This document shows positions 479 to 63,224 of a stretch of DNA of 64,000 nucleotides, in pieces. The DNA is from Negaprion brevirostris (Eukaryota). How positions within the stretch are numbered: position 1 is the stretch's first letter; the number at the start of each line of letters is the position of its first letter. The stretch spans positions 50,130,495 to 50,194,494 of the forward strand of contig JARDVH010000025.1 of NCBI GenBank assembly GCA_030324005.1, written 5' to 3'. Below the pieces are notes generated by a model. That model was not told the DNA's origin, searched no databases, and saw only the letters and a list, made by a program, of their open reading frames with translations. The translations under genes and the position numbers were made by a program.

Positions 479-2865
479 GTAATTTTCAAGATCAGCTGTC
501 TGTTGTACTTACCCAATTTTCATCCCATTGATTTTATGGAATGTGTACAAGACATATGTGTAACAGCTGTGCTAATATGACAGATTGGTGAGAAACAATA
601 GGGACCAATAAATTGGAGTACAGAGAAATAGACTTCAACAGTTATGATTAACTCGTTAGAATAATGGATAACTGAAAATTAGAAATGAGTAAGTATCTTG
701 TGTATAGTTCAAACAAGAAAGAAAACAAATAGTCAGAAAATGAGTTATTAAAAAAACCCAACTGCACACTGAGCCACCTGTGACATCTTATGGATCAATA
801 TAATTTGAACAAATAAATCATTTTTGGTGCCCAGAGTGCTAGGAGACAGAAAAGTTGAACTTTCACTACACCGAAGGCAATAATAGTATTTAATTTACAA
901 CATCAGGATGAATTGAAATACTTTCTTCATAAAATCTTCCTTTGAAATGCTGGCTATAATAGCAGAAGAGCTGTGAACCAATAAATTGTATTTTGTTCAA
1001 ATATTGCAATTAATCTAAATTTGTCACTGTGTCATGATGCCTTATATGAAAGGATGCACTTGAAATCTCTTTTGGATAAATAGTCTTGGTTTACTGTGCT
1101 GCTTATTACACTTTTAGAAAATAATGTTGTTGCTGTTGAGTACTACCATCATTCTGTACTATACATGCAAAACAAAAACCATTGTCAGTGCTCATGTTGC
1201 AGTTAGTTTTCTAGATTATTACATTTGCTAGCTGTCTAAACAAATTAGGAATAATTAATCAGGTAATGATATTTTAGATTTAATTTGCTACTTATAATGC
1301 TTTCTGTGCTCTGCATAAATATTGGTTTAATGCTTACGCTAATATTTTTAAATGCAGTCAATGTTCTGGAAAGTCCATATTGCAGCATATTATTATTTGG
1401 CCTGTTCTCAAAGTAGCTCAGTGATGTACATAAATCCTTGTAATGAATCAAAGGAGGCAGAACAATTGTGCATCATGTATACATTAGTGTGATGACAGGA
1501 TAAAAGGAAAATATTATTCTGCATATGATTAACTGAAAGAATTACAAAACGTTTGAGATCAAAAAGCATCTATCTCTTTGAAGCTGATCAGCACAATTTA
1601 AAAACAATTATCAAAGACAATGTTTTGTCAGCTGCGTTTAACAGTATCAGCCGAGTACAAACAAGACAATTCTTTATTTTTGTGCCTGCAAATACACTCC
1701 CATTTAATTTTAATATTATAGAATTTTCAGACAAGATAATATTGGAATTCTCAAAACAATCATATATATTATTCACAAATTTGTTTTGGTTACATAAACA
1801 TTGAATATTCAAACTACTGCAAATAAAAGTTAATGAAGTTGACAATTCTGCCAAACATTTTCCAATTTTTGTTTATCTTTACTGATTGTTGATAGCTACT
1901 CCGTTGACTTGACGAAGCAACAGAACCATATAGATTAGGAAGGTTACTTCCTGGTCTGTGTTGAGTGGTTATCTTAGCTGAAGCAGTGGTAGGGATGCTG
2001 CAGTTGGGCCTGAAAGTTTAGGGCTCTTGAAGTGGAATGGAGATAGCTGAGCCCTAAAAATACCAGTACTGGGCAGCATGTCCTCTTCAGGATGCCATTC
2101 CAGCCTTCAGTCATTTTGCAGGAGACAAGATTAGACCCAGGGAAAGGCACACCCTCTTCCCCACCCAGAGAACAGCAGATGATTAGGCTGAGTAAGACTA
2201 TTGCTAAAGGTCGGTTAGGTGAGATGGTCAGTTTCTCAACACAACAGGGAGGAGGTTAATTGCCTAGAGACAGTCCCCAGGGACAGGTTGGGATGACTGA
2301 ATTCCTGGTAGATCTATAGCCCCTTCCTATCTGCGTGGGTAAGAATTCATCTTAAAATTACCCTGTAAAAGAAGTTTCCCCACCTCTTGCAGTGATGGTC
2401 TGGCTGTTTTTATTTTTTCCTGTTAATTTTATTTTTAAAATTGAGGCAGCACCTTTTTGTTGAAGGAGTTTCCCAGTTATTTGCCTTTTCCTACAGCCAG
2501 TTGCTTTTCTGAAACTGGAAGACTTCTGATTGGCCCTCGAGCTCTGAAAGCCTGCCCTGACTGAAACAGAAACCCATCTCCAGGCCAGTTAAGGGCTTAC
2601 GTACACTTCTTATCTGAAAACAAACCTATCTTTGTTTCCTGCCTCTGTGGCAAAACTTTAGCCCTTAATCTCAGCAGACCAGGGTTCCGGTAAACAGGAT
2701 TATGGTAACTAATACAGATTGCATCATGCATTCTTTTATTCATTATGGTGTTGAGTGACCTTGCAAAACCCAAATTAAGCATTAGGGAGCAGGTTATTAG
2801 CGACTAAGTATCAATTGATGTCACTGACACCTTTCATAGCTTTCTTAATGATTAGGAATAGACAG

Positions 2866-4320: not shown

Positions 4321-4996
4321 AGGCAATGCAGTTTTTAGAGTTGCAATTTTATGATCCTAAGGAGACAATTACCCTGGAGATGAATGAGTCACAGAAAGGG
4401 CTGGGCAGAGGCATACTATAAAAAGGCAAACTGATTGCATTTGCTTCTAAATATCTGTCTGTAACACAATCCACTACTCCAACTTTGGCAGGAAACATTA
4501 GTTTTAACGTTTGAAATCATGGCAAAAAGTTTATAGTGGGGACAGATCACATGCCACTGGAGATGAAAACCAATGTGTGCTGTCAAGATTGCAATGTCTC
4601 TTGATAAAGTCTTAAAGTTATGTTTATGAGATTAGGTACAAGCCAGACAACTTGATGATACACTTAGCAGATTGTCTAACCCAAAAAAAAAGATATGTCC
4701 TTAGATCAACAAGTTGACTCTATTTACACTGAAATTGAAAATTCTCCAAATTGATCCAGTACATTTTGTGCAAAGCAAATGCCAGCAGCTACAAGAAGAT
4801 GTGGTAAAAGATTCCACACTGCAGAAGCTGTGGAAAAACATTATTGAAAGATGGCTGGATTCAATTCAGCATGTCCATGAACATGTGCAACTATTTTGAC
4901 CTTATTAGGACAAGCTCTGTATCTCCTCTTTAAAGCAAGATCATCATACCAGAATCTTTGTAACCTGATACTCTTCAATAACTTCATCTCTCACAC

Positions 4997-5290
4997 GGCT
5001 GAGATCAAGTGTAGTATTGATATGCTATACTTGGTTGAAGTCAGTAGGTTACATTTTAGCTTCATTTGAAGCAATTTTTAAAAGTGACATCTTGGCCTTT
5101 TGGCTAAGGTACAAATGAAATCAAGCCTTGGAGGAGGAGCTATGCCTACTCCAATCAGCTTGGATCATGTAGATCGAGTCCAAGATAGGAGGTGAGAGTC
5201 CTGTCTTGTCAGCTTGGATTGGGAATGTCTCAAATTGTTGAGACTCTGAATTGGACTTGATTTGATTGAATTGGAGTAAAAACAAAAAAA
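4997..5290 (+). mobile_element. U2 snRNA-headed, poly(A)-tailed retroposon (candidate SINEU-like element)
   Basis: 4997-5017 matches U2 nt 19-39 at 20/21, and 5090-5108 matches U2 nt 7-25 at 18/19. A-rich tail at 5278-5292. 17-bp TSD AACTTCATCTCTCA(C/T)AC at 4980-4996 and 5291-5307. Confidence 0.75.
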
Positions 5291-5599
5291 AACTTCATCT
5301 CTCATACATGGACATAGATTGGAAGAGAAGTCTCCCAAGAAAGACAGTATATTGGCCAGGTATGAACAATGACTTTGAAGTTGTCGTCAAGATGCTTGAG
5401 GCATGTCTAGAGCACATGCCAAGTCAGCACAAAGAATCATTGATTCCACATGAAGAACCTATCCATCCTTGGTCCAAAATCACAACCGACCTCTTTCAAT
5501 GACTTAATCATTATCTTCATTGTCAACTACTTGAAGAAGTTTCCCTTTATTCAATAATTGCACAATATATCCAGCACAACAATCTCACACATACTCTAA

Positions 5600-5710
5600 G
5601 GGCAGAATTTTCCCATCCTGTATGCCAGGGGAATTGTCATGGACAGGACGTTGTTGACCTCGGGTGGGATTTACCAGTCTTGGGGAAAGCACGGCTAGAA
5701 AAGCCTGTCC
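5600..5710. mobile_element. ~110-bp MITE, PIF/Harbinger-like, inserted in the Gypsy integrase
   Basis: TAA on both flanks (5597-5599, 5711-5713). Imperfect terminal inverted repeats (TIRs) GGGCAGAATTTTC / GAAAAGCCTGTCC. Related copy at ~60616-60741. Confidence 0.65.
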
Positions 5711-6646
5711 TAACTATTTTTTTTTTCAGTTTATTTAGCGTGCTAGAGATATCATTATGGATAACATTCTGCAATTTGTTGGTAAGCCATTTCAGGATAC
5801 ATGTGGGACTAATCAATCAATCATACTAATTCTTCTCCTCATGACCCTCGATCAAATGGCCTGACTGAAGGACTGATTTACCCAATAACATTCCAAATTC
5901 TCAAATGTAGACAGACCAAGTAAGATCTGCATATTGCAATATTACCTCTGAGATGAATACCTTTAAATGCAACTATTCCTTTGCTGGCAGACCCCATGCT
6001 TGGGCAACCAGTGAGTACCAGTTTATCCACTCTTACCAAATCTACTGTTTCAAAAATTAGAGAAAAACTTTTAAAACTACACAAGAAGATGACCAATGGA
6101 CCCGATAAAATTGCAGGTACAGAATTGTTGAATTTGCAGCTGGGACAATAGGTTCACATCCAAGATCCCACAGAAGGTATAAGGCAACCAGCCAGGGTGA
6201 CAAGGATTTGTTCAGAATCAAAGTCTTGTGAACTCATTACACAAAGGTACAACAATGAACCATAACCAAGGACAAGTCAGATCTACTCTAAATCCTTGAC
6301 CACTATATGGTCTGATTGAATCTAGGATTAGATCCCAAATGTAACCAAGAACAACATCCAGGAATGAAAATCTCACAGAGCACTGTGAAATTTAAAGAAT
6401 TTTGTCATTAAAGAATTTTGGTGGTATGGACAAGTTGGGCTGAAGGGTCTGTTTCCATGCTGTAAACCTCTATGACTCTAAATCTTCAGACAAGGTTACT
6501 ATTATGAGACCTGGGTGGACCAACAATTTATCTTTAGGGACTGAGGTTCATCAATTCCAAACACTTATTGAAATTAAACATAAACATTGTGGTAAACAGT
6601 TATACTTCTTTGGAAAGGAGAAATGTATTTTGAAAAGAAAGGGAGA

Positions 6647-16060: not shown

Positions 16061-16365
16061 TGGGCAACATGGTTGTGTAGTGATGTCTCACAGGGACCTG
16101 GGCTTGGTTATCAGCTTGGGTCACTGTTTGAGTGGAGTTTGTACGTGCTCCCTTTATCTGCATAGGTTTCCACCTACAGTCCAAAGATGTGCAGGTTAGG
16201 TACACTGGCCATGCTAAATTGCCCCTTAGTGTCCCAGGATGCATCGGTTAGAGGGATTAGTGGGGTACATATGTGGGGTTATGGGGATAGGGCCTGGGTG
16301 GCGTTGTTGTCGGTGTAGACTCAATGAACCAGATGGCCTCCTTCTGCATTGTAGGGATTCTGTGA
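16061..16365 (+). mobile_element. HE1-type tRNA-derived SINE with CR1-type tail
   Basis: tRNA-like head, central ggagtttg..ctccc..ccaaagatgtgcaggttagg domain, tail ggcctccttctgcattgtagggattct. Confidence 0.8.
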
Positions 16366-19224: not shown

Positions 19225-19465
19225 AAAAAGCAAAATACTGTGGATGCTGGAATCTGAAACAAAAACAGAAAGTGCCGGAAAATCTCTGCAGGTCTGACAG
19301 CATCTATGGGGACAATATAGAGCTAACATTTTGAGTCAAGATGACCCTATGGCAGAGCATAATGACGCTTTGATGAAGGGTCATCCAGACTCGAAATGTT
19401 GGCTTTATCCTCTCTCCACAGATGCTCTCAGACCTACTGAGATTTTCCAGCATTTTCTGTTTTTG
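19225..19465. mobile_element. Penelope-like inverted-repeat (hairpin) element
   Basis: ~100-bp arms at 19260-19358 and 19367-19465 are reverse complements of each other. Confidence 0.75.
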
Positions 19466-19629: not shown

Positions 19630-19800
19630 CCAAAGTCCAAAGATGTGTGGGTTAGGTTGATTGGCCATGCTAAAAATTGCCTCTTAGTGTCCTGGGATGC
19701 ATTGGTTAGAGGGATTAGGGATATGGGAGTAGGGACTGTGTGGTATTGTGGTCAGTGCAGATTCAATGAGCCAAAATGGCCTCTTTCTGCACTTTGGGGT
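19630..19800 (+). mobile_element. 5'-truncated HE1-type SINE
   Basis: gtccaaagatgtgtgggttagg..ggcctctttctgcact. Confidence 0.7.
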
Positions 19801-19859
19801 TTCAATATCAAGTTACTTTCATCTGTAAATTTAACGTTATCGTGATTTACATAGTTACA

Positions 19860-20156
19860 GAGCGGCACGGTGGCACAGTGGTTAGCATTGCTGCCTCACT
19901 GCACCAGGGACCTCGATTCAATTCCTGGCTTGGGTCACTGCCTGTGTTGAGTTTGCACATTCCTCCCGTGTCTGCGTGGATTTCCTCCGGGTGCTTCCAC
20001 AGTCCAAAAGACTCACTAGTTAGGTGCATTGGCCATGCTAAATTCTCCCTCAGTGTATGCTAACAGGTGCCGGAGTATGGCAACCAGGGGATTTTCACCA
20101 TAACTTCATTGCAGTGTTAATGTAAGCCTACTTGTGACACAAATAAATAAACTTAA
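19860..20156 (+). mobile_element. HE1-headed SINE with alternative tail
   Basis: A-box tggcacagtgg and B-box gattcaattcc. Tail taacttcattgcagtgttaatgtaagcctacttgtgacac..aataaataaactt. Confidence 0.8.
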
Positions 20157-21234
20157 ATGTAGTATTATTATATAATTACTACCAGAATGTTTCACAATGG
20201 AAGGATTTATGAAGGCAAATTTAATTTCATTGAAGCAGAGGACATTAATCAGCTATGAGTTATCGCATGTGAAACAAGTAACAGTAAGTTTGTTCATTTC
20301 TGCCATCTGGTACCTTTTAATTACAATGGGAAATTATCATTTACTTTTGCTGAACACTTTCCATAAGCAGTGGTACTAGCTGGTACATTAAACAAGTGTA
20401 GATCAAAACATGTGAAAATCATTGGTTATAACTAATGTGAAGAAACCGTGACATGGTAACAATCTTGAGTTTGGCCATTTATGTTTGCACAAATGACACT
20501 GACTCAGTTCCCAGGAATATTGTTTAAACAAAATAGGTTGCATTTGCACTTTGTACATTAATGTATTTCCTTCTATTTCAAATGTACATATTTGTTTATT
20601 GTACGAAAGAGAAACTAACATGGCATTGTGCAAACATTCATTAAATTCATTATTGAATGTGGAAGGATTTTTGAATGTGAATACATGCTCATTTGCAGAT
20701 AAAACAGATGAAGCCCATTGTAAGGAACACACTCTTTGGAAACACATTTCATTAGCAGTGTTCCTTTCCTTGTAAATATAGAATGCAACAATGCCAGGAT
20801 CATATTTTGTTTGTGTGAAATTGAGCTTACAAAACTGCAATCATGGTCCACCACTGTAAACATTGCCAAATGGATGTTCCATCTCACCAGTGACTTCAAT
20901 GTCTGTCCCTATTTTAATTGCCAGGGTCAGTGGATTACAGTGACAAACACCAATATCAATATTGGCATAGCTGAAGCTTCAGGAAGTTGGAATGGGGTAG
21001 AAGCATATGACGGCGAAAAGCCACTTGGATTCAGTCAACGCCTGACTCAAGCAGCTATTCACTGCCATATATTACTGCATTGCTCTAACCTAGCAGTTGC
21101 CTGCCTGTTGTGTGTTAATTGACACAACTTCTGGCAAGTCTATGATGACATCCAGTTCTACCATCTCTCAAGAGTTGTTTACTATCTCGGCACCAGGCTC
21201 TTTGTTCAACATTAAGTCTTGTATCTGTTTATTT

Positions 21235-23670
21235 TTCATTTGGTCACAGGATGTGGGTGTTGGTGGTGAAATCAGCATCTATTATCCACCTGAATTGCCC
21301 TTGAGAAGGAAGTGAGCTGCTTTCTTGAACTGCAGCAATCAGTTTGGCATAGGTATCCAGGGTAGTGATGGGAAGGAAATTCCATTGATTTNNNNNNNNN
21401 NNNNNNNNNNNNNNNNNNNNNNNNNNNNNNNNNNNNNNNNNNNNNNNNNNNNNNNNNNNNNNNNNNNNNNNNNNNNNNNNNNNNNNNNNNNGGGGAGAGG
21501 TGGTGGGGGGTTATTTGTTGGTGGTGATTTTCCATGTATCTGCTGACTTTGTCCTTCTAGGTGGCAGAGGTCATGAGTTGGAAGGTCTTCTCTGAAGGAG
21601 CCTTGGTGAGGAACTGCTGCAGAGCATCTTGTAGATGGCACACACTGTTGCCAAAGTGTGACAGTGATGGAAGGAGTGAATGTCAGTGGATAGGGTGCCA
21701 ATCAAATGGGCGACTTTGTCCTGGATGGTGTCTGTCAATGTCTTATCAGCTACATTGTTAATGTTGGTTCATGTTAATTACATTGTTAAGGGAATCAGGT
21801 GATGCATATCTGAAAACATATAAGTTGGAGTTAGCACACTGGGTGGAACGTGAGGAGTATTGTCAAAAAACAAAGTTAATATTGTCTCTCAGCAAGGAAG
21901 GGTTCTGAATTCATCAACTAGTGGGGATCCTATTCACAGTGTTGAGTTTCTTAAGTCTTGTTAGAGCTGCATTATCCAGGCTAGTGAGAAGTATTCTATC
22001 ACATTCTTGATTTGTGCCTTGTAGATTATCTCCAAATTTAGGGGTGTCAGGAGATGATTTATTCTCGGAATTATTTATTCACAGGAATGAGATAGAGAAT
22101 CTGGTGAACTGGTGTGGCAACAATAACCTCTCTCTCAATGTCAACAAAACAAAAGAGATTGTCGTTGACTTCAGGAAGCATAAAGGAGAACATGCCCCTG
22201 TCTACATCAAATGGGGACGAAGTAGAAATGGGCGAGGGCTTCAAGTTTTTAGGTGTTCAGATCACCAACAACTTGTCCTGGTCCCCCATGCCGACACTAT
22301 AGTTAAGAAAGCCCACCAACACTGCTACTTTCTCAGAAGACGAAGGAAATTTGGCATGTCAGCTATGACTCTCACCAATTTTTACAGATGTACCATAGAA
22401 AACATTCTTTCTGGTTGTATCACAGCTTGGTATGGCTCCTGCTCTGCCCAAGACCACAAGAAACTACAAAAGGTGNNNNNNNNNNNNNNNNNNNNNNNNN
22501 NNNNNNNNNNNNNNNNNNNNNNNNNNNNNNNNNNNNNNNNNNNNNNNNNNNNNNNNNNNNNNNNNNNNNNNNNNNNNNNNNNNNNNNNNNNNNNNNNNNN
22601 NNNNNNNNNNNNNNNNNNNNNNNNNNNNNNNNNNNNNNNNNNTCTTCCCTGCTGCTGTCAGACTTTTGAATGGACTTACCTTGTATTAAGTTGATCTTTC
22701 TCTACACCCTAGCTATGGCCGTAACATTAAAGTCTGCACTCTCTCGTTTCCTTCTCTCTGAATGGTATGTTTTGTCTGTATAGAATGCAAGAAACAGAAC
22801 TTTTCACAGTATGTTAATACATGTGAAAATAGTAAATCAAATCAAACCAAGGAATTCCTGACCTCTGACTTGAGCTTGCAGCCATTGAGTTATTGGTCAG
22901 CAGTAATTTGCTGGATGTTGATAGTCAGGGTTCTGTGATGATAATGCCATTGAATGTTAAGGGGGGTGATTAAATTCTGTCTTGTTGGAGATGGACATTG
23001 CCTGGCATTTGTGTGCACAAATATTACTTGTTACTTATCAGCCCGAGAGTGAATGCTGACCAGGTCTTATTGCATATGGACATGGACAGTTTCACTATCT
23101 GAGGAGTTATGAATGGTTCAGAACATTGTGCAAACATCTAGCTTTATGATGAAGGGCAGGTCATTGATGAAGTAGCCGAAGGTGGTTAGGCCTAGGACAC
23201 TACCCCAGGGAACTCCTGCAATGATCTCCTGGAACTGAGATGATTAACCTCCAAAAACGATTACTCCCTTCCTTCGTGCTAGGTATGACTCTAATCAGCA
23301 GGGAGCTTTCCCCCGATTCCCATTGACTTCAGTTTTACTAGCCTCATTAATGCCATGCTCAGTCAAATACTGCTTTGATGTCAATGGCAGCCAGTCTCGC
23401 CTCAACACTTGGGTTCAGCTCTTTTGTCCACGTGTGGACAAAGGCTGTAATGAGGTCAGGGTCTGAGGTGTCCGGTGGATCTCAAACTGAGCATCAGTGA
23501 GCAGGTTATTCCTGAGTTAGTGCTGCTTGACATCTTCTGTCACTTTACTGATGATCGAGAGAAGACTGAAGGAGTGGAATTGGCTGGATTTGATTTGGCC
23601 TGTTTTTTGTGGATCGGACTTATTTGGGTAATTTTTACATTGCCAGCTTAATGCTAGTATTATAGTTGGG
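21235..23670 (-). mobile_element. CR1-like LINE (second family), interrupted by a Rex1/Babar insertion
   Basis: 21235-22030 and 22850-23670 are consecutive reverse-complement pieces of the 48405-50622 type sequence. Confidence 0.75.
22080..22850 (+). mobile_element. Rex1/Babar-clade LINE 3' fragment
   Basis: NLVNWCGNNNLSLNVNKTKEIVVDFRK and LTNFYRCTIENILSGCITAWYGSC. Ends in (aaatc)n. Confidence 0.85.
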
Positions 23671-27914: not shown

Positions 27915-28250
27915 TATAGAATCCCTATAAGTGCAGAGGGGGGCCATTTGACCCATCAAGTTTGCATTGAACCTCTGACAGAGTACCTTACCCAATCCCT
28001 TTCTCCACCCTTTCCCTATAACCCCATATTTACCATGGCTAATCCATCTAAACCACACATCTTGGGGCACTAAGGGGCAATTTTGCAAGACTAATCCACC
28101 TAAACTGCACAACTTTAGACTGTGGAAGGAAACTGGAGCACCCAGATGAAATGCAGTCAGATATGGGGTGTACAAATTCTACACAGTCACAGTTGGATTA
28201 GAACACAGGTCTGTGGCTCTGTGAGGCAGCAGTGAGAACCACAGTGCCAC
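27915..28250 (-). mobile_element. HE1-type SINE
   Basis: Reverse complement of the 16061 and 38522 type element, with head and tail present. Confidence 0.8.
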
Positions 28251-34678: not shown

Positions 34679-35216
<538 letters not shown>

Positions 35217-38521: not shown

Positions 38522-38860
38522 ATTGGTGGTACAGTGGTTGGCACTGTCACATCACAGCACCAGTGACCCAGGTTTGATTCCAGCCTTGGTGACTGTGTGG
38601 AGTTTGCACATTTCCCCCAGTGTCAATATGGGTTGCCTCCAGGTGCTCTGGTTTCCTCCCATAGTCCAAAGTTGTGCAGGTTAGGTGGATTGACCACAGT
38701 AAGTTGCCCCTTAGTGTCCCAAGATGTGTAGTTTAGAGGGATTAGTGGGGTAAATATGTGGAGTTATTGGGATAGGACCTGAGCAGGTTGCTCTGTTGGA
38801 GAGTCAGTGCTGACACAAAGGGCTGAGTAGCCTCCTTCTGCACTGTAGGGAGGCTATGAA
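38522..38860 (+). mobile_element. HE1-type SINE
   Basis: Head ggtggtacagtggttggcactg..ggtttgattcc and tail gcctccttctgcactgtaggga. Confidence 0.8.
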
Positions 38861-39725
38861 ATGTGGAAACTGATGCAATGCAAAATAAAGGTGACAAAAG
38901 AGAACGATAAGAGTGAGCTCATTGATTCTTACAAAGAATCAAAGTTCATGTTATTGTTGGTGCCTACGTCAATCAGTGTAATCCTGCACACACCAATCTG
39001 GTTGCAATATTGATTTGAAGTGATAATTGGTTCTTCAGAGGGTGGATTGCCACCTATAATTTCTAGCAGTTTGTGCCTTTGTGATTACTCATGTGACACC
39101 TGACGGTCCAGAACATTGTTCTTATCCATTTGCAGTGAGGGAGCTTAAAGGTAGACATTTTGAAGCCTCATCAAAAGGTACGTTCTCACCTCAAGGTAAT
39201 AATTTGTATTGACAGTTTAATGGGCTGAGTTTGCTTCTCTGAGATTTAAAGGAGAGCAGTTCACAGAGGGGCAGTTTTTTCTCTCCAATCACAGAATGTC
39301 TCTAATCTAGGCAACCAGCAAGAAAAAGCTGTCTGTCTTTTAAAGTATGTATCAATTGAAGGAATAATTGAGATAAAGAAACCTTCCATCTTAGCACCTA
39401 TATTTAGAAAGAAAGAGATTGAGTTTTATTGTTTCTATAACCAAGGAATGTAGGAGAATTTATGCTTTCACTATGAAAAATGTACACTGTTCATTATACT
39501 ATTTGTGTTATTGATCTAAAGCTTGTGCTTTATTTCAGCAGAAAGCATTGGAACATAGTAACAGGAGTAGACCATTCATCCTCTTTTGCCTGCTCTGCCA
39601 TTCAATTAGATCATGGCTGATCTGTGGCTTATCTCGACTTTAGTTCTATATCCCTTAATAGCATTATCTATCAGTCTCAGTTTTGGAACTTTCGATTGAA
39701 TTGGAATGAAAATATTTTTCACTAC

Positions 39726-43645: not shown

Positions 43646-43967
43646 TTAATCTACCCTCTGAGTAAAGAACCTACCTCTGACATCCGTCCTATAATTACCA
43701 CCCCTCAATTTAAAGCTATGTCCCCCTGTGTTAGCCATCACCATCCGAGGAAAAAGGCTCTCACTGTCCACCCTATCTAACCCTCTGATCATCTTGTATG
43801 CCACAAGTAGGTCACCTCTTGAGCTTCTCTCCAATGAAAATAACCTCAAGTCCCTCAGCCTTTCCTCATAAGACCTTCCCACCATACCACGCAACATCCT
43901 GGTAAACCTCCTCTGCACCCTTTCCAATGCCTCCACATCCTTCTTATAATGCGGCGACCAGAACTGT
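43646..43967 (-). mobile_element. CR1 (HER1-like) LINE fragment, relatively young
   Basis: EALERVQRRFTRMLRGMVGRSYEERLRDLRLFSLE..YKMIRGLDRVD..GRFFTQRV. Confidence 0.88.
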
Positions 43968-44049: not shown

Positions 44050-45245
44050 TAAGGTCAGAAGTTGGGATGTTCACTAATGATTGCACAATGTTCAGCACCA
44101 TTCGTGACTCCTGATACTGAAACAGTCAATGTTCAAATACAACAAAATCTGGACAATATCCAGACTTGGTGCTGACAAGTGACAAGTAACATTTGTGCTA
44201 CACAAATGCCAGACAATGACTATCATCAATAAGAGACACTCTAACTCCCATCCCTTGACATTCAATAGTATTACCATCATTGAATCCCCCATTGTCAATA
44301 TCCTTGTGGTTACCATTGACCAGAAACTCAACTGGACTCATCACATAAACACAGTGGCTGCAAGAGCAGGTCAGAGGCTAGAAATACTGCGGCAAGTATC
44401 TCACCTCCTGACTCCTCAAAGCCTATCCCCCGTCTACAAGGATCTTGATCCAGCGATTGCGAAGGAGCAGTGATAGATTTCCAATGGTGAGTGGTTTTAG
44501 GATGATGAGTGGCTTGAAGGGGAACTTGTAGGTGATGGTGTCCCCATGTATCTGCTGCCCTTGTCCTTCTAGATGGAAGTGGTCGTGCATTTGGAAGGTG
44601 CTGCCTTAGGATCTTTGGTGATTTGCTGCAGTGCATCTTGTAGATGGTACACATGCTGCTATTGAGCGTCAGTAATGGTGGAGTGTGATGGAATACTCCT
44701 CACTTGCCTGGATGGATGCAACTCCAACAACACTCAAGAAGCTTGACACCATCCTGCTTGATTGGCACCACATTAGAAACACCCACACCCTCCACCACCG
44801 ATGCTCAGTAGCAGCAGTGTGTACTATCTACAAGATGCGCTGCAGTAATTCACCAAAGATCCTTAGACAGCACCTTCCAAACCCATGACCACTTCCATCT
44901 AGAAGGACAAGAACAGCAGATACATGGGAACACCACAACCTGCAAGTTCCCCCCCAAGTTACTCACCATCCTGACTTGGAAATATATCGCTGTTCCTTCA
45001 CGGTCGCTGNNNNNNNNNNNNNNNNNNNNNNNNNNNNNNNNNNNNNNNNNNNNNNNNNNNNNNNNNNNNNNNNNNNNNNNNNNNNNNNNNNNNNNNNNNN
45101 NNNNNNNNNTGTGGGTCAACCCACAGCACATGGGCTACAGTGATTCAAGAAGGCAGCTCACCACCACCTTCTCAAGGGCAACTAGGAATGGGCGATAAAT
45201 GCTGGCCAGCCAGCGATGCCCATGTCCTGAATTAAAGAAAAAATT
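44050..45245 (+). mobile_element. CR1-like LINE 3' part with an internal inverted segment of the same family
   Basis: Sense at 44050-44440 and 44680-45245. The segment 44441-44680 is antisense and complementary to ~44800-45009. Confidence 0.8.
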
Positions 45246-52361: not shown

Positions 52362-52660
52362 AGGTGGCATTGTGGCACAATGGTTAGTGTTACTGCCTCA
52401 CAGGGCTAAGCACCTGGGTTCAATTCCCAGCTTGGTTACTGTCTGAGTGGAGTCTGCATGTTCTCCCCATGCCTGCATGGGTTTCCTCTGGTTTCCTCCC
52501 ACAATTTAAAAGACATGCTGGTTAGGCACATTGGCCATGCTAGATTCTCCCACAGTTAACCTGAACAGGCGCTGGAGTATGGTGACTAGGGGATTTTCAC
52601 AGTAACTTCTTTGCAGGGTTAATGTAAGCCTACTTGTGGCACTAATAAATAAACTTTAAA
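52362..52660 (+). mobile_element. HE1-headed SINE with alternative tail
   Basis: Same head and tail as 19860-20156. B-box ggttcaattcc. Confidence 0.8.
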
Positions 52661-53313: not shown

Positions 53314-53580
53314 AGGGTGGCATGGTGGTACTGTGTTTAGCATTGCTTTGTCACAATGCCAGGGATCCGGGTTCAATTCTGGCTATTACCTGTGTTGAGT
53401 TTGCATGTTCTCCCCGTATCTGCGTGTGTTTCCTGTGGGTGCTCTGGTTTCCTCCTACAGTCTGAAGATGTGCTGGTTAGGTTAATTGGCCATATTAAAT
53501 TTCTCCTTACTGTTCGGGTGACTAGTAGGTTAAGAGGATAGGGCCTGGGTAGATTGTTATTGGTGCACACTTTATGGGCC
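53314..53580 (+). mobile_element. HE1-type SINE
   Basis: gggtggcatggtgg..gggttcaattct..gagtttgcatgttctcccc. Confidence 0.75.
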
Positions 53581-53880: not shown

Positions 53881-54189
53881 GATGAAATGGCTCCTTCTAT
53901 ATTGCAGAGATTATATGATTCTAATCTAAAGACTCATCTATTTACTGAGTATTTTCTGGAAGATCTGTTGTTTGTCCAAAAAAGCACACTTTTTTGGGGC
54001 AATAGGATACCCTGCTGTGAATGCTGAGTTGTAAGCCAGCAGAATGAAGGTGTGATGAATGTTAATTCAGTAAGAGGAATCAGGAGGAAGTTTACTTCTG
54101 TCAAGTGAAATGCCTAGGTAAGTATATCCATTTTTGCACAGGTTGGGTATATCAAAACTGACAACCTCGTGTCCTGGACACTTTAAAAG

Positions 54190-54808
54190 GGTTGAGGGCT
54201 TCTTTTCGGTGTCCAGATCATCATCAACCTGTCCTGGTCTCCCCATGCCAACACTACAGTTAGGAAAGCCCACCAACTCCTCTACTTTCTTAGAAGAATA
54301 AGGAAATTTGGCATGTCAGCTACGACTCTCACCAACTTTTACAGATGCACCATAGAAAGCATTCTTTCNNNNNNNNNNNNNNNNNNNNNNNNNNNNNNNN
54401 NNNNNNNNNNNNNNNNNNNNNNNNNNNNNNNNNNNNNNNNNNNNNNNNNNNNNNNNNNNNNNNNNNNNNNNNNNNNNNNNNNNNNNNNNNNNNNNNNNNN
54501 NNNNNNNNNNNAGGATCCTCAGCACCCTGGACATTCTGTCTTCCACTTCCGCTGGGAAAAAGATACAAAAGCCTGAGGTCACGGACCAACCAACTCAAGA
54601 ACAGCTTCTTCCCTGCTGTTGTCAGACTTTTGAGTGGACTTACTTTGCATTAAGTTGATCTTTCTCTATACCCTAGCTATGACTGCAACGCTACACTCTG
54701 CACTCTCTCATTTCCTTCTCTATGAATGGTATGCTTTGTCTGTATAGCATGCAAGAAACAATATTTTTCACTGCATACTAATATGTATGATAGTAATAAA
54801 TCAAAAAA
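54190..54808 (+). mobile_element. Rex1/Babar LINE 3' fragment
   Basis: MSATTLTNFYRCTIESIL..KRYKSLRSRTNQLKNSFFPAVVRLL, near-identical to the 22230-22850 copy. Confidence 0.85.
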
Positions 54809-57895: not shown

Positions 57896-58187
57896 GGGTG
57901 GCATGGTGGCACAGTGACCCAGGTTCAATTCTGCCTCGGGTCACTGTCTGATTAGAGTTTGCACGTTCTCCCTGTGTCTGCGTGGGTTTCCTCTGGGTGT
58001 TCCAGTTTGCTCCCACACTCCAAAGATGTGCAGGATAGGTGGATTAGCCATGTTAAATTGCCCTTTAGTGTCAGGGAGATTAGCCATGGTAAATATGTGG
58101 GGTTACAGAATAGGGCCTGGATGGGATCGTTGCCAGTGCAGGCTCGATGGGCTGAATGGTCTCTTTCTGCACGGTAGGGATTCTGTG
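57896..58187 (+). mobile_element. HE1-type SINE
   Basis: gggtggcatggtggcacagtg..gagtttgcacgttctccc..tagggattctgtga. Confidence 0.8.
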
Positions 58188-60010
58188 AAAATGCATGTTA
58201 TAATGGAATGCAATCACACAAGAAGCATACAGGCATGAATGTCATCTACTGTGCCTTGAGCTCGAGTCAGCAGTCCTGTCAACATGACGCCACTTTCTTC
58301 AATGTGCTGATCTTCATAACTACAGGAACAACCTTATCTGTGGCACAAGTTGCAGGAAAGGTACATCCCTTTTGAAATGGAGGTATAGAACACAACATCA
58401 TATACACACATGTGAATTCTTATTAGATAAGCCACTAAACTCTTGAACTTTATTGAAGAAGTCATGTCCCATGTGGAATCGTGTGTGTAATCTCTTCTGC
58501 TAAGCCCAAGTGGAAATGTCTTGGTTTGTCCATACATTTGCTGGAGTAAAAGTCAGTGCAGACATGATGCTGCAGGTATCTTTACGTGTGTACTTGATAT
58601 TCCAAGTATTGGAACCTCCAAGATAATTTGCTTGCTGCAATGTGAACAGTTTTGCATAATAGAAGTCTTAGAATGCAAAGAACAATAATCTTCACGGGAG
58701 CAGGAACGAGAAAATAGCATCAAGGTATCAATACTTTTAAAAGCAGGAGGACACTCGTGACCATTTGCAAGGACCTAATGAGTGTTTCAGATGACCATTC
58801 AGCGGAGTTGCTAACCTTGCACAGTTACTCTGCAGTTTTTGGAAATTAAAGATTTATTTTCTAGTTATTGCTGAAAAGAAAGCAGGAGAAGAATTCAGGC
58901 ATCTTTTATTTTCATTTTCTTTGTCATAAAAAGGTTGAAAATGGTGGGGTGGGGGGGGCAGTTTGACTGGGTAAGGTTGTTGGAGGGAGGTCAGAGTTGG
59001 TAGTCCAAGCTGCCTAAAAAATCTCTCGACTGAAAATAGTGTAAGACTTTGGCCTTTTGCCTGAGGGTTAAGATACAGATCTTATTCTAAAAGCCTCGTC
59101 AAGCATTTCTGATCTTTTAATTGTGTTTCATTCTTTGGTGATAGGTTTTCCTTTAGTTAAGATATTTAAGAATTATGATGTCAATAGCAAGACAAGCAGA
59201 CAACTATGTGAGATATTACTGGTGATGCAATTTTTTTTTGCATCTATGGAGTATGTCTCCAGGCTAAACAACCAGCTTTCAGCCCACTTGAGCCTTTCTC
59301 ACTGCCTACTTTATAACCTGCTGAGGCTCCAGGGTGTACTCCAATGTCTGAAGCATTGAGTTTCAAAACATCTAGATATGATTTAGAAACATCAGATGAC
59401 AGCAGAATTAAACAATATGTTGGAATGAAAAAAAACACCTTGTATACAGATGCGTTTTTCTGTTTAATTGTAATTTATTTCTGTAAGAAGCATTTATAAT
59501 ATCCCAAGGGGACGGTGAGACTCTGACAGAATGGGAGAGAGGACGAAGAGACAAAATTGTATTCTCTCAAAAAAATTCTTAAGTGCCGAAGTCGCTTAAA
59601 AGCTGGAGTAAATACTGCCGTTTTTTTTTCAGTGGGAATTTCAAAATGAATTTCCCACACTCTGTGCACTGCAGAGTGCACTAGCACAAATCTNNNNNNN
59701 NNNNNNNNNNNNNNNNNNNNNNNNNNNNNNNNNNNNNNNNNNNNNNNNNNNNNNNNNNNNNNNNNNNNNNNNNNNNNNNNNNNNNNNNNNNNNNNNNNNN
59801 NNNNNNNNNNNNNNNNNNNNNNNNNNNNNNNNNNNNNNNNNNNNNNNNNNNNNNNNNNNNNNNNNNNNNNNNNNNNNNNNNNNNNNNNNNNNNNNNNNNN
59901 NNNNNNNNNNNNNNNNNNNNNNNNNNNNNNNNNNNNNNNNNNNNNNNNNNNNNNNNNNNNNNNNNNNNNNNNNNNNNNNNNNNNNNNNNNNNNNNNNNNN
60001 NNNNNNNNNN

Positions 60011-60741: not shown

Positions 60742-63224
60742 TGTTATCACAAATACCATCAGAAGAAAATAAAGAGGATTCAACTTCATTGAGGAGGTTG
60801 AAGCATATAAACCCTGAATCACTTAGCACTTACCATGATGACCATGAAACCATTGTCAATTGTTGGAAAACCCCATCTGGTTCACTAATGACCTTTAGGG
60901 AAGGAAATCTGCNNNNNNNNNNNNNNNNNNNNNNNNNNNNNNNNNNNNNNNNNNNNNNNNNNNNNNNNNNNNNNNNNNNNNNNNNNNNNNNNNNNNNNNN
61001 NNNNNNNNNNNNNNNNNNNNNNNNNNNNNNNNNNNNNNNNNNNNNNNNNNNNNNNNNNNNNNNNNNNNNNNNNNNNNNNNNNNNNNNNNNNNNNNNNNNN
61101 NNNNNNNNNNNNNNNNNNNNNNNNNNNNNNNNNNNNNNNNNNNNNNNNNNNNNNNNNNNNNNNNNNNNNNNNNNNNNNNNNNNNNNNNNNNNNNNNNNNN
61201 NNNNNNNNNNNNNNNNNNNNNNNNNNNNNNNNNNNNNNNNNNNNNNNNNNNGGTTCGGATTTGGAATGCTGTGTCTCGTGAGGTGGAAGGTGCAACTTAG
61301 CAGTAGCTTGCAAGAGAACAAAAATGCAGAGTTATGTGGTAAAGGAGGGAAGGTGGGATTAACTTGATTGCTCTTTGAACATGCTGATGTGGCATCAATG
61401 GGCCAAATAGTTTCCTTCTGTGTTTTAGTACTCTCTGATTGTACCACATTTAGGTAAGAAACTGGAGGGTTGGCAGCATCTGTGGAATCATAAAAGAAAA
61501 TTCCTTCAGCAGGGGAGGGAAAAACTACATAGAAAATTGGTAGAAAAATAAAATTGGGTCATAAGCTTTTGGGAAAAGGTTGTAGTTTGCAAGTGTGGAC
61601 TTTTCACTTGAGCATTTGTTTCAATATTATGGACCAATAATGCAGTCCTGCCAGAGTGGAATGGTGCTTGTGTCCTGAGAAGCTGATTTGCTTGATAAAG
61701 TGTGGTCAGGTCATTAATAGAATTTACTAGCATTACTCTGACAAAGTGGGACTGCATTGTGTTCTGGGAGGGAGGGCTAAATGGAATTTCTTCCCCTTCA
61801 ATATGCACACCTTTTTAGGATGCAAACATGATGAATGGGACAGAGCAGCTTTATAAAATAATTGAGATCTGGAGGGCATTTTTCAGGAGGTCATTCTGTG
61901 AAGGGTGATTCTAATTGGAGCTGGGTACAGACAGAGCATCATGGTTATTAGAGCCTGCAGCAGACTGATGTATGTTTCTAACCTTTCCTGCGCAGTTCAA
62001 CCAGCTGCACCATTGCTTTAAGCATTCTGAATATTAGTTCCCTGTTTTACCCTATCAGCCTGCTGTTGCCTGCTACCTATCAGCACATGAGGATTGCACA
62101 AAGGTGCCATTAATTAGTTATGCAACTTCTATATGAAGAGTTAATCCTTACACATACCTGTTCCTTCAAAGAGTCCTAGCAAGCTTGATTAACTCAGATT
62201 GCAAGCACTGGCCCAAAGCTTTCAAGCTCTGGGGCATTAGTCTGAGGGGTGTCTCAAAGATTCNNNNNNNNNNNNNNNNNNNNNNNNNNNNNNNNNNNNN
62301 NNNNNNNNNNNNNNNNNNNNNNNNNNNNNNNNNNNNNNNNNNNNNNNNNNNNNNNNNNNNNNNNNNNNNNNNNNNNNNNNNNNNNNNNNNNNNNNNNNNN
62401 NNNNNNNNNNNNNNNNNNNNNNNNNNNNNNNNNNNNNNNNNNNNNNNNNNNNNNNNNNNNNNNNNNNNNNNNNNNNNNNNNNNNNNNNNNNNNNNNNNNN
62501 NNNNNNNNNNNNNNNNNNNNNNNNNNNNNNNNNNNNNNNNNNNNNNNNNNNNNNNNNNNNNNNNNNNNNNNNNNNNNNNNNNNNNNNNNNNNNNNNNNNN
62601 NNNNNNNNNNNNNNNNNNNNNNNNNNNNNNNNNNNNNNNNNNNNNNNNNNNNNNNNNNNNNNNNNNNNNNNNNNNNNNNNNNNNNNNNNNNNNNNNNNNN
62701 NNNNNNNNNNNNNNNNNNNNNNNNNNNNNNNNNNNNNNNNNTCCATCCAGTCTGTGCATTAGCTTTGTAACTCTGAAGATGATAGAATTTTTGAAGTTGG
62801 ATTGTGTCGGAAGGTCAGACGAGAAAGAAATGATTTCATTTCCAGGCAAGTAACTAGGATAATAGGTATGAAACCTGCCACCAGAAAACAATGCATATTC
62901 CTTGGGAAATATACATAATGGCCCATGTCAGTCTGACTCAGATTATCACTCCGTGGAAGATTCGGGCCATTATGTGTGTTCCCCAGGAAAGATGCATTAT
63001 TTTCTGGTGGAGGTTGCCCAGTTACATGTTTTTGAATAAATAATGGATTTGCCACTTAAGATTTGTTATTGACGTGTTAGGATAATGATTGCTTGCAGTG
63101 TGTGATGCCCCATAGCATGCATAAGTGTACATGCACAAACAAAGCAAAGCGCCAAATATTTGCCCAGTGAAACGGTTGCTGAATACAGATTGTGATTATT
63201 TATTTAATTACAGTTTCTAGAACC

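Follow-up and report, generated by a model that had tools for sequence, protein, structure and literature searches.

A candidate U2-headed, SINEU-like retroposon with a fold-back head and tandem hairpins in a presumed cartilaginous fish

Retroposition of the L1/Tx1 type is expected to leave two marks at the site of insertion, namely a long target-site duplication (TSD) and an A tail. Retrozymes and other ribozyme-bearing retroelements are strongly folded, non-coding mobile RNAs of ~300 nt. Short retroposons with snRNA-derived heads have been described as SINEU, which the text of PMC4494074 (Kojima 2015) places in crocodilians only and which PMC5381603 likewise names as crocodilian. According to the former, SINEU elements are marked by the repeated addition of U1 or U2 heads and by an internal oligo-T. 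Some of their Tx1 partners carry U1/U2 heads themselves, and two Tx1 families prefer LTR elements as targets (PMC4494074). How SINEU elements are transcribed was left open there, snRNA genes being devoid of an internal promoter.

Two further systems are relevant. Firstly, in the LINE Utopia the U2 3' flank begins at nt 39, and Keno uses the identical site (PMC4640811), on which PMC6136364 agrees; reptile Utopia elements have TSDs of 20 bp (PMC4640811). Secondly, the hallmarks of retroposition are set out in PMC4476161, and the break points of snRNA retrocopies fall preferentially within single-stranded stretches (PMC4476161; PMC5322556). Here, we describe an insert found in a 64-kb stretch of DNA, referred to in the following as the window, and compare it to these systems.

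The insert and its host site

Between two TSD copies that are identical at 16/17 positions lies an insert of 294 nt (4997-5290). The features of this locus are collected in Table 1. A TSD match of this quality would be expected by chance within 1 kb with a probability of ~1e-5, by rough estimate. The 3' end of the insert consists of a short A-rich tail that is interrupted by one C, and among the A6+ runs of the 64-kb window this tail was the sole one with an adjoining TSD-like repeat. On the basis of the long TSD and the A tail, 4997-5290 is an RNA-type insertion of structured non-coding sequence. The preliminary description of this DNA had proposed a retroposed 294-bp insert with a 17-bp, one-mismatch TSD and an A-rich tail, and both the limits and the retroposed nature of the insert are confirmed by these marks.

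Table 1. Position of the features in the window
Feature	Position	Strand	Remarks
Decayed Gypsy/Ty3-type pol remnant hosting the insert	~4400..6100 (approximate limits)	+	RNase H-like piece, then integrase H2C2
5' TSD	4980..4996	+	17 nt, inside Gypsy-type integrase zinc-binding codons
U2 head, nt 19-39	4997..5017	+	20/21; holds the branch-point recognition sequence
Antisense arm to U2	5022..5050	+	5022-5042 pairs with 4997-5017; 5043-5050 can pair with U2 nt 11-18, absent from the copy
Weaker hairpin	5048..5088	+	Inner 5-bp stem 5059-5072 (4-nt loop); Sm-like A-U5 run 5073-5080 without closing G
Second U2 piece, nt 6-27	5089..5110	+	19/22; forms a stem-loop I with 9 perfect bp
Hairpin module A	5113..5167	+	Basal helix, 1x3 loop with UCA strand, 6-bp and 3-bp inner stems
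Hairpin module B	5166..5221	+	Tandem paralogue of A, period 54; geometry as A, inner letters differ; B-box-like 9-mer at 5172
3' domain	5222..5278	+	7-bp hairpin 5227-5244; G/T-rich end complementary to parts of modules A and B, their starts included
A-rich tail	5278..5290	+	
3' TSD	5291..5307	+	

The duplicated target consists of codons of the integrase zinc-binding region of a Gypsy-type pol. This pol remnant contains numerous stops and frameshifts besides the insert. Compared to Pfam, the downstream flank of the insert matched Integrase_H2C2 (PF17921, E 0.0012) and the upstream piece of the remnant matched RT_RNaseH weakly (PF17917, E 0.14), both under the curated cut-off. The upstream integrase piece by itself gave no Pfam match, and no homologue was returned when the integrase fragment was used as a query.

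In an ORF search, the longest open frames lying mostly inside the insert reached at most 57 codons. As a low-power test, the 57-aa minus frame was compared with 1.84 billion proteins, giving 2 matches, both to repeat proteins by way of summed weak stretches; the 40-aa plus frame had no match in the protein set. Unlike retrozymes, the insert shows no hammerhead core motif on its plus strand, no Rfam ribozyme match and only one, non-credible match to an HDV descriptor, and it carries an A tail and a long TSD.

U2-derived pieces and the fold-back of the head

As the U2 reference we used human/mouse U2 as printed in bioRxiv 2021.08.01.454689, to which the pieces were compared by eye. In this comparison, the insert opens with U2 nt 19-39 (4997-5017, identity 20/21), and a second U2 5' piece corresponds to nt 7-25 (5090-5108, 18/19) or, when extended to 5089-5110, to nt 6-27 (19/22). 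Both pieces had been noticed in the preliminary description and are found again here. The second piece has three changes, each of which keeps or creates stem I pairs; one of them, C10-to-T, can be plain CpG decay. The chance of the U2 matches was estimated by hand at ~1e-3 window-wide and ~1e-5 given the insert.

The alignment of both pieces to Rfam RF00004 is weak, with 18.2 bits (E 0.2) for the first and 15 bits (E 0.51) for the second piece at a gathering score of 46. At gathering level no Rfam match was obtained anywhere in the 64-kb window, and region 5109-5285 gave no match to the Rfam U2 model. With a colinear match of 18.2 against the 46 bits needed, the earlier view that this is not a simple U2 pseudogene holds. 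The insert does resemble U2 retropseudogenes of the 3'-truncated, poly(A) and chimeric kinds in having a U2 5' fragment, a long TSD and a break in a single-stranded region, as these are described in PMC4476161 and PMC5322556. It differs from them in that it starts at nt 19 and in that ~250 of its 294 nt form a remodelled structured body, the divergence of which predates insertion.

The U2 identity of the head stops at nt 38 or 39, at most 1 nt away from the 38/39 site of the U2-targeting LINEs Keno (Tx1 clade) and Utopia (PMC4640811; PMC6136364), in agreement with the break point proposed earlier. Because snRNA retrocopies favour single-stranded break points, this coincidence is a fit and no proof. 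The birth of the element from a Keno-disrupted U2 gene, which had also been suggested, is one possibility; a break near nt 39 can also come about when the template is switched or when priming occurs inside single-stranded U2, as discussed in PMC4476161. With 20-bp TSDs like those of reptile Utopia, the U2 5' flank would be expected to be longer than it is here.

A related explanation makes the insert a non-autonomous LINE, namely part of a Keno/Tx1-type LINE that stems from its terminus or has an internal deletion, in which U2 nt 1-38 would have been co-transcribed from a disrupted U2 gene and followed by the 5' UTR and 3' UTR of the LINE. Apart from the position of the break, it can draw on the presence of Keno in fish, frogs, lancelet and hydra (PMC4640811) and on the U1/U2 heads of some crocodilian Tx1 families (PMC4494074). 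We consider it improbable, as the insert has no notable ORF, thus neither a reverse transcriptase nor an endonuclease frame, lies outside a U2 gene with a 3' flank of Gypsy instead of U2 nt 39 onward, and contains a second U2 piece in its body. In addition, an exact search with five short body and junction motifs in 10 Utopia supplement files gave 0 matches, the comparison covering Utopia. Altogether, the insert is neither Keno/Utopia itself nor a plain U2 pseudogene.

The head is followed, after a loop of 4 nt, by an antisense arm that had been overlooked in the preliminary description. Segment 5022-5042 pairs with 4997-5017 at 19/21 positions, five of them as G·U, with one tandem GA/AG loop. 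The resulting fold-back is 21 bp long and has a 15-bp core with a predicted pair probability of 0.99; only two further hairpins in the window reach 15 uninterrupted pairs, one on each strand. At 1928-1961 (+) there is a hairpin of 15 bp without interruption and with a loop of 4 nt, its sequence being unrelated to the insert. According to the predicted fold, the branch-point recognition sequence of the U2 head would be buried in the fold-back.

Divergence within this structure is uneven. The antisense arm differs from a perfect complement at 7/21 positions (33%), the U2 arm from U2 at 1/21 and the TSDs from each other at 1/17 (6%). As the arm differs at a third of its positions yet keeps 19 pairs, and the TSDs show a single difference, the fold-back is older than the insertion at this site. 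All transitions in the arm (5/5) are pair-keeping, the G·U bias being weak when taken alone (p 0.063).

The arm continues beyond the head. Segment 5043-5050 pairs at 7/8 positions with U2 nt 11-18, for which the second U2 piece of the window served as stand-in (749 of 60,987 window 8-mers do as well), and at 2/8 positions with the flank now present. Since the continuation fits the missing nt 11-18 and not the flank, the master probably begins further up in U2 and the copy at 4997-5290 is probably 5'-truncated, as had been proposed.

Tandem hairpin modules and overall folding

Downstream of the second U2 piece, the body contains the two hairpin modules A and B. Their paralogy was equalled in 0/2000 dinucleotide shuffles and in 23/5000 real neighbouring pairs. 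In a near-ungapped alignment of A and B, 14/14 pairs are kept, six by double changes and two by G·U changes, a covariation that consists of two sequences in one alignment, with a structure derived from those same two sequences. As controls, 3/500 shuffles were as good, and slid alignments were 29-54% paired. When the same substitution load was simulated neutrally, all 14 pairs survived in 43-60 of 400,000 runs at a ts/tv of 2 and in 347-374 of 400,000 at a ts/tv of 4; shuffled module interiors arrived at this geometry in 150 and 344 of 200,000 cases. Because an alignment based on sequence only shifts the inner register, it is possible that the inner hairpin was replaced wholesale in A or B.

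In both modules, the basal helix is similar to U2 nt 26-31 and its antisense, as in the fold-back of the head. Homology of the fold-back to module A is borderline (5/2000 shuffles, 126/5000 real pairs) and to module B not significant (1139/2000 shuffles). A derivation of A and B from U2 stem-loop III is suggestive by eye (12/14 ungapped, hand-estimated E ~0.2) and found no Rfam support; the likeness of module A to this stem-loop is weak and unproven. With its two U2 pieces and its tandem modules the insert has the multimeric build that had been attributed to it.

Overall, the insert folds with a z of -6.25 on the plus strand, 0/200 shuffles being as good, and of -4.29 on the minus strand, whereas its two flanks range from -1.26 to +0.36. 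The body is thus structured, as stated before, and the three hairpins named at that time (5181-5208, 5227-5244 and 5059-5072) are predicted with mean pair probabilities of 0.87, 0.94 and 0.97. Local and long-range folds of the insert lie within 3.5 kcal/mol of the minimum. The complementarity of the 3' domain connects 5170-5183 with 5251-5264, 5147-5155 with 5270-5278 and 5114-5125 with 5256-5267.

In the case of the left part of the insert, folding is strand-biased (z -6.89 on the plus versus -2.61 on the minus strand). In the case of the body at 5111-5280, z values are -3.3 and -3.4 on the two strands, without strand bias, and its folding may stem from inverted repeats at the DNA level. A strand-neutral count gave 9 G·T versus 2 A·C in the insert, which is itself G/T-rich, and 199:196 in 66 control tiles. 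Among 400 window tiles, comparable folding was seen only in a few inverted-repeat tiles. Inverted-repeat structures folding strongly on both strands occur at 44451-45009, at 19260-19465 and in the tile at 62765, the first two being head-to-head copy pairs of interspersed repeats.

Because the modules keep all their pairs, and because the insert folds far beyond its shuffles and the flanks do not, a long-lived structured RNA is most likely its source. Such a source stands against a one-off chimera of U2 and another RNA, produced by template switching or twin priming at the insertion here, which we regard as very unlikely. Twin priming is documented in human to yield inverted, 3'-truncated U1/U2/U5 pieces (PMC4476161), and a single copy is seen in the 64-kb window. 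However, the documented cases show an inverted piece beside L1, without the combination of sense piece, antisense piece and tandem modules; here, the antisense arm has diverged by 33% from the sense arm against 6% in the TSDs, and the covariation of A and B requires a long history. The strongest evidence of a long history of the master RNA lies in the antisense arm together with the covariation of the duplicated hairpins, neither of which appears in the preliminary description.

Copies, relatives and proposed origin

Within the 64-kb window, neither blastn nor nhmmer nor a CM built from modules A and B detected a second copy of the insert. Two candidates were dismissed: 18 nt resembling U2 stem-loop I at 59049-59066 (+), which lack the body and are probably a chance match (nhmmer E 8.4), and a tail-like match at 39691 that stands isolated. 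Matches to one plasmid and three phage records (E 0.9) were attributed to chance. GTDB loci found through a repeated 11-mer, mostly bacterial and archaeal tandem repeats, shared the motif and a few bases only in 8/8 cases. In literature that takes in neither subscription journals nor Repbase or Dfam, no SINE with a U2 head was listed for sharks or rays.

Other elements of the window were recorded along the way. A SINE-like repeat of ~300 nt, which we take to be V-SINE/HE1-like, is present in at least 7 diverged copies that are 69-79% alike (16063-16365, 19630-20157, 28008-28250, 38524-38861, 52363-52659, 53316-53525 and 57912-58190); a motif-based literature search for it returned no relevant paper. 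LINE-like fragments, presumably of the CR1/L2 type, lie at 43649-43966 (-), 22011-22846 (+) and 54186-54805 (+), and the first of them, a LINE tail, has 54 relatives in the protein set that are up to 91% identical. The repeated SINE and the CR1-like pieces look, in our judgement, like shark repeats. At 34932-35216 (+), ~30 kb downstream of the insert, lies an exon coding for part of a two-pore potassium channel that we assume to be KCNK3/KCNK9-like (Ion_trans_2 in Pfam, E 2e-5), and a degenerate minisatellite with a 33-35-nt unit occupies 8-164. V-SINE HE1 belongs to sharks and rays (PMC4824008; PMC3747384).

Compared to SINEU-1 through SINEU-3 as they are presented in PMC4494074, the insert is similar in being shorter than 500 nt (294) and non-coding, in having U2-derived 5' sequence with more than one U2 piece and an A tail, and in sitting in another transposon. 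Of the internal oligo-T without a clear internal promoter that marks SINEU, the insert shows three T4-T5 runs, along with one exact B-box match. The two U2 5' pieces of the one copy may go back to a recurrent addition of snRNA heads as in SINEU. Differences concern, firstly, the target, as SINEU shares with Tx1-Mar a preference for Mariner-N4 and the insert, in the one copy seen, lies in a Gypsy-type pol; secondly, the insert has an antisense arm to its head and covarying tandem hairpins, unlike SINEU as described in the text of PMC4494074. The insert works like SINEU and is at most a candidate member of it.

Another explanation would do without a mobile family: the insert could have been retrocopied, as a processed copy, from a U2-derived structured RNA gene present once or in few copies, that is, an snRNA-like variant with a U2 promoter. 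Structure-preserving divergence fits any conserved RNA, the Sm-like run lies 57 nt past nt 39 as compared to 60 in U2, module A looks like stem-loop III by eye, a second copy is absent from the window, and retrocopies of snRNAs commonly carry poly(A) and a TSD or are at least frequent in that form (PMC4476161). On the other hand, the Sm-like site has no closing G, the Rfam U2 score remains far under its threshold with no U2 match in 5109-5285, the antisense arm buries the branch-point sequence, and the stacked heads match the history of SINEU. We consider this origin rather unlikely.

With regard to transcription, general consensus motifs served as box patterns. The B-box consensus is matched exactly at 5172-5180 (expected 0.06 times per 284 nt in the window), and a one-mismatch A-box at 5101 is among five in the insert. 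The insert has three T4-T5 runs; one T4 run lies across the A-box candidate at 5101, with two further T4 runs upstream and none downstream, and ARAGORN detected no tRNA. These boxes, and the lack of T4 runs beyond 5101, would accommodate an ordinary Pol III SINE whose A-box-like element comes from the second U2 stem I and whose B box is 5172-5180, the left part having been added later at the 5' end. We give very little credence to this idea in view of the five equivalent A-boxes, the T4 runs over and upstream of the candidate and the missing tRNA.

Altogether, we hold it to be somewhat better than an even chance that the insert is a 5'-truncated copy of a non-autonomous, U2-headed, SINEU-like retroposon that arose independently and was moved by L1/Tx1, the host presumably being a cartilaginous fish. 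Such an element would have been assembled stepwise, by addition of U2 heads and duplication of the fold-back unit. Its master RNA would start further up in U2, at least at nt 11, and would be a Pol II product driven from outside, by an upstream promoter of the U2 type or by read-through; Pol II is preferred over Pol III because of the three T4-T5 runs. The antisense arm would hide the branch-point and U6-pairing region, and because of this masking the RNA would not behave as a broken U2. An ORF2 protein of the L1/Tx1 type would then prime on the A tail and copy the RNA into the site, halting at U2 nt 19. Full-length copies are predicted to start further up in U2, with nt 11-39 paired with the antisense arm and masters located behind a U2-type promoter.

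A more far-reaching version of this proposal, which we regard as unlikely but conceivable, is that retroposons with snRNA heads arose a second time, independently, in cartilaginous fishes. Here, the Keno site in U2 genes would harbour the masters, which would be transcribed from the U2 promoter, a built-in antisense would mask the branch-point head, and the tandem hairpins would be under compensatory selection as a protein-binding array. If true, this would answer how SINEU-type elements are transcribed, and it would present a selfish RNA neutralising the spliceosomal fragment that it borrows.

In conclusion, the fold-back together with the covariation of the twin hairpins suggests that the RNA has been under selection, beyond a simple pick-up of U2 fragments. 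If such an element arose independently in a further vertebrate lineage, this would make U2 heads a recurring route to the birth of SINEs.
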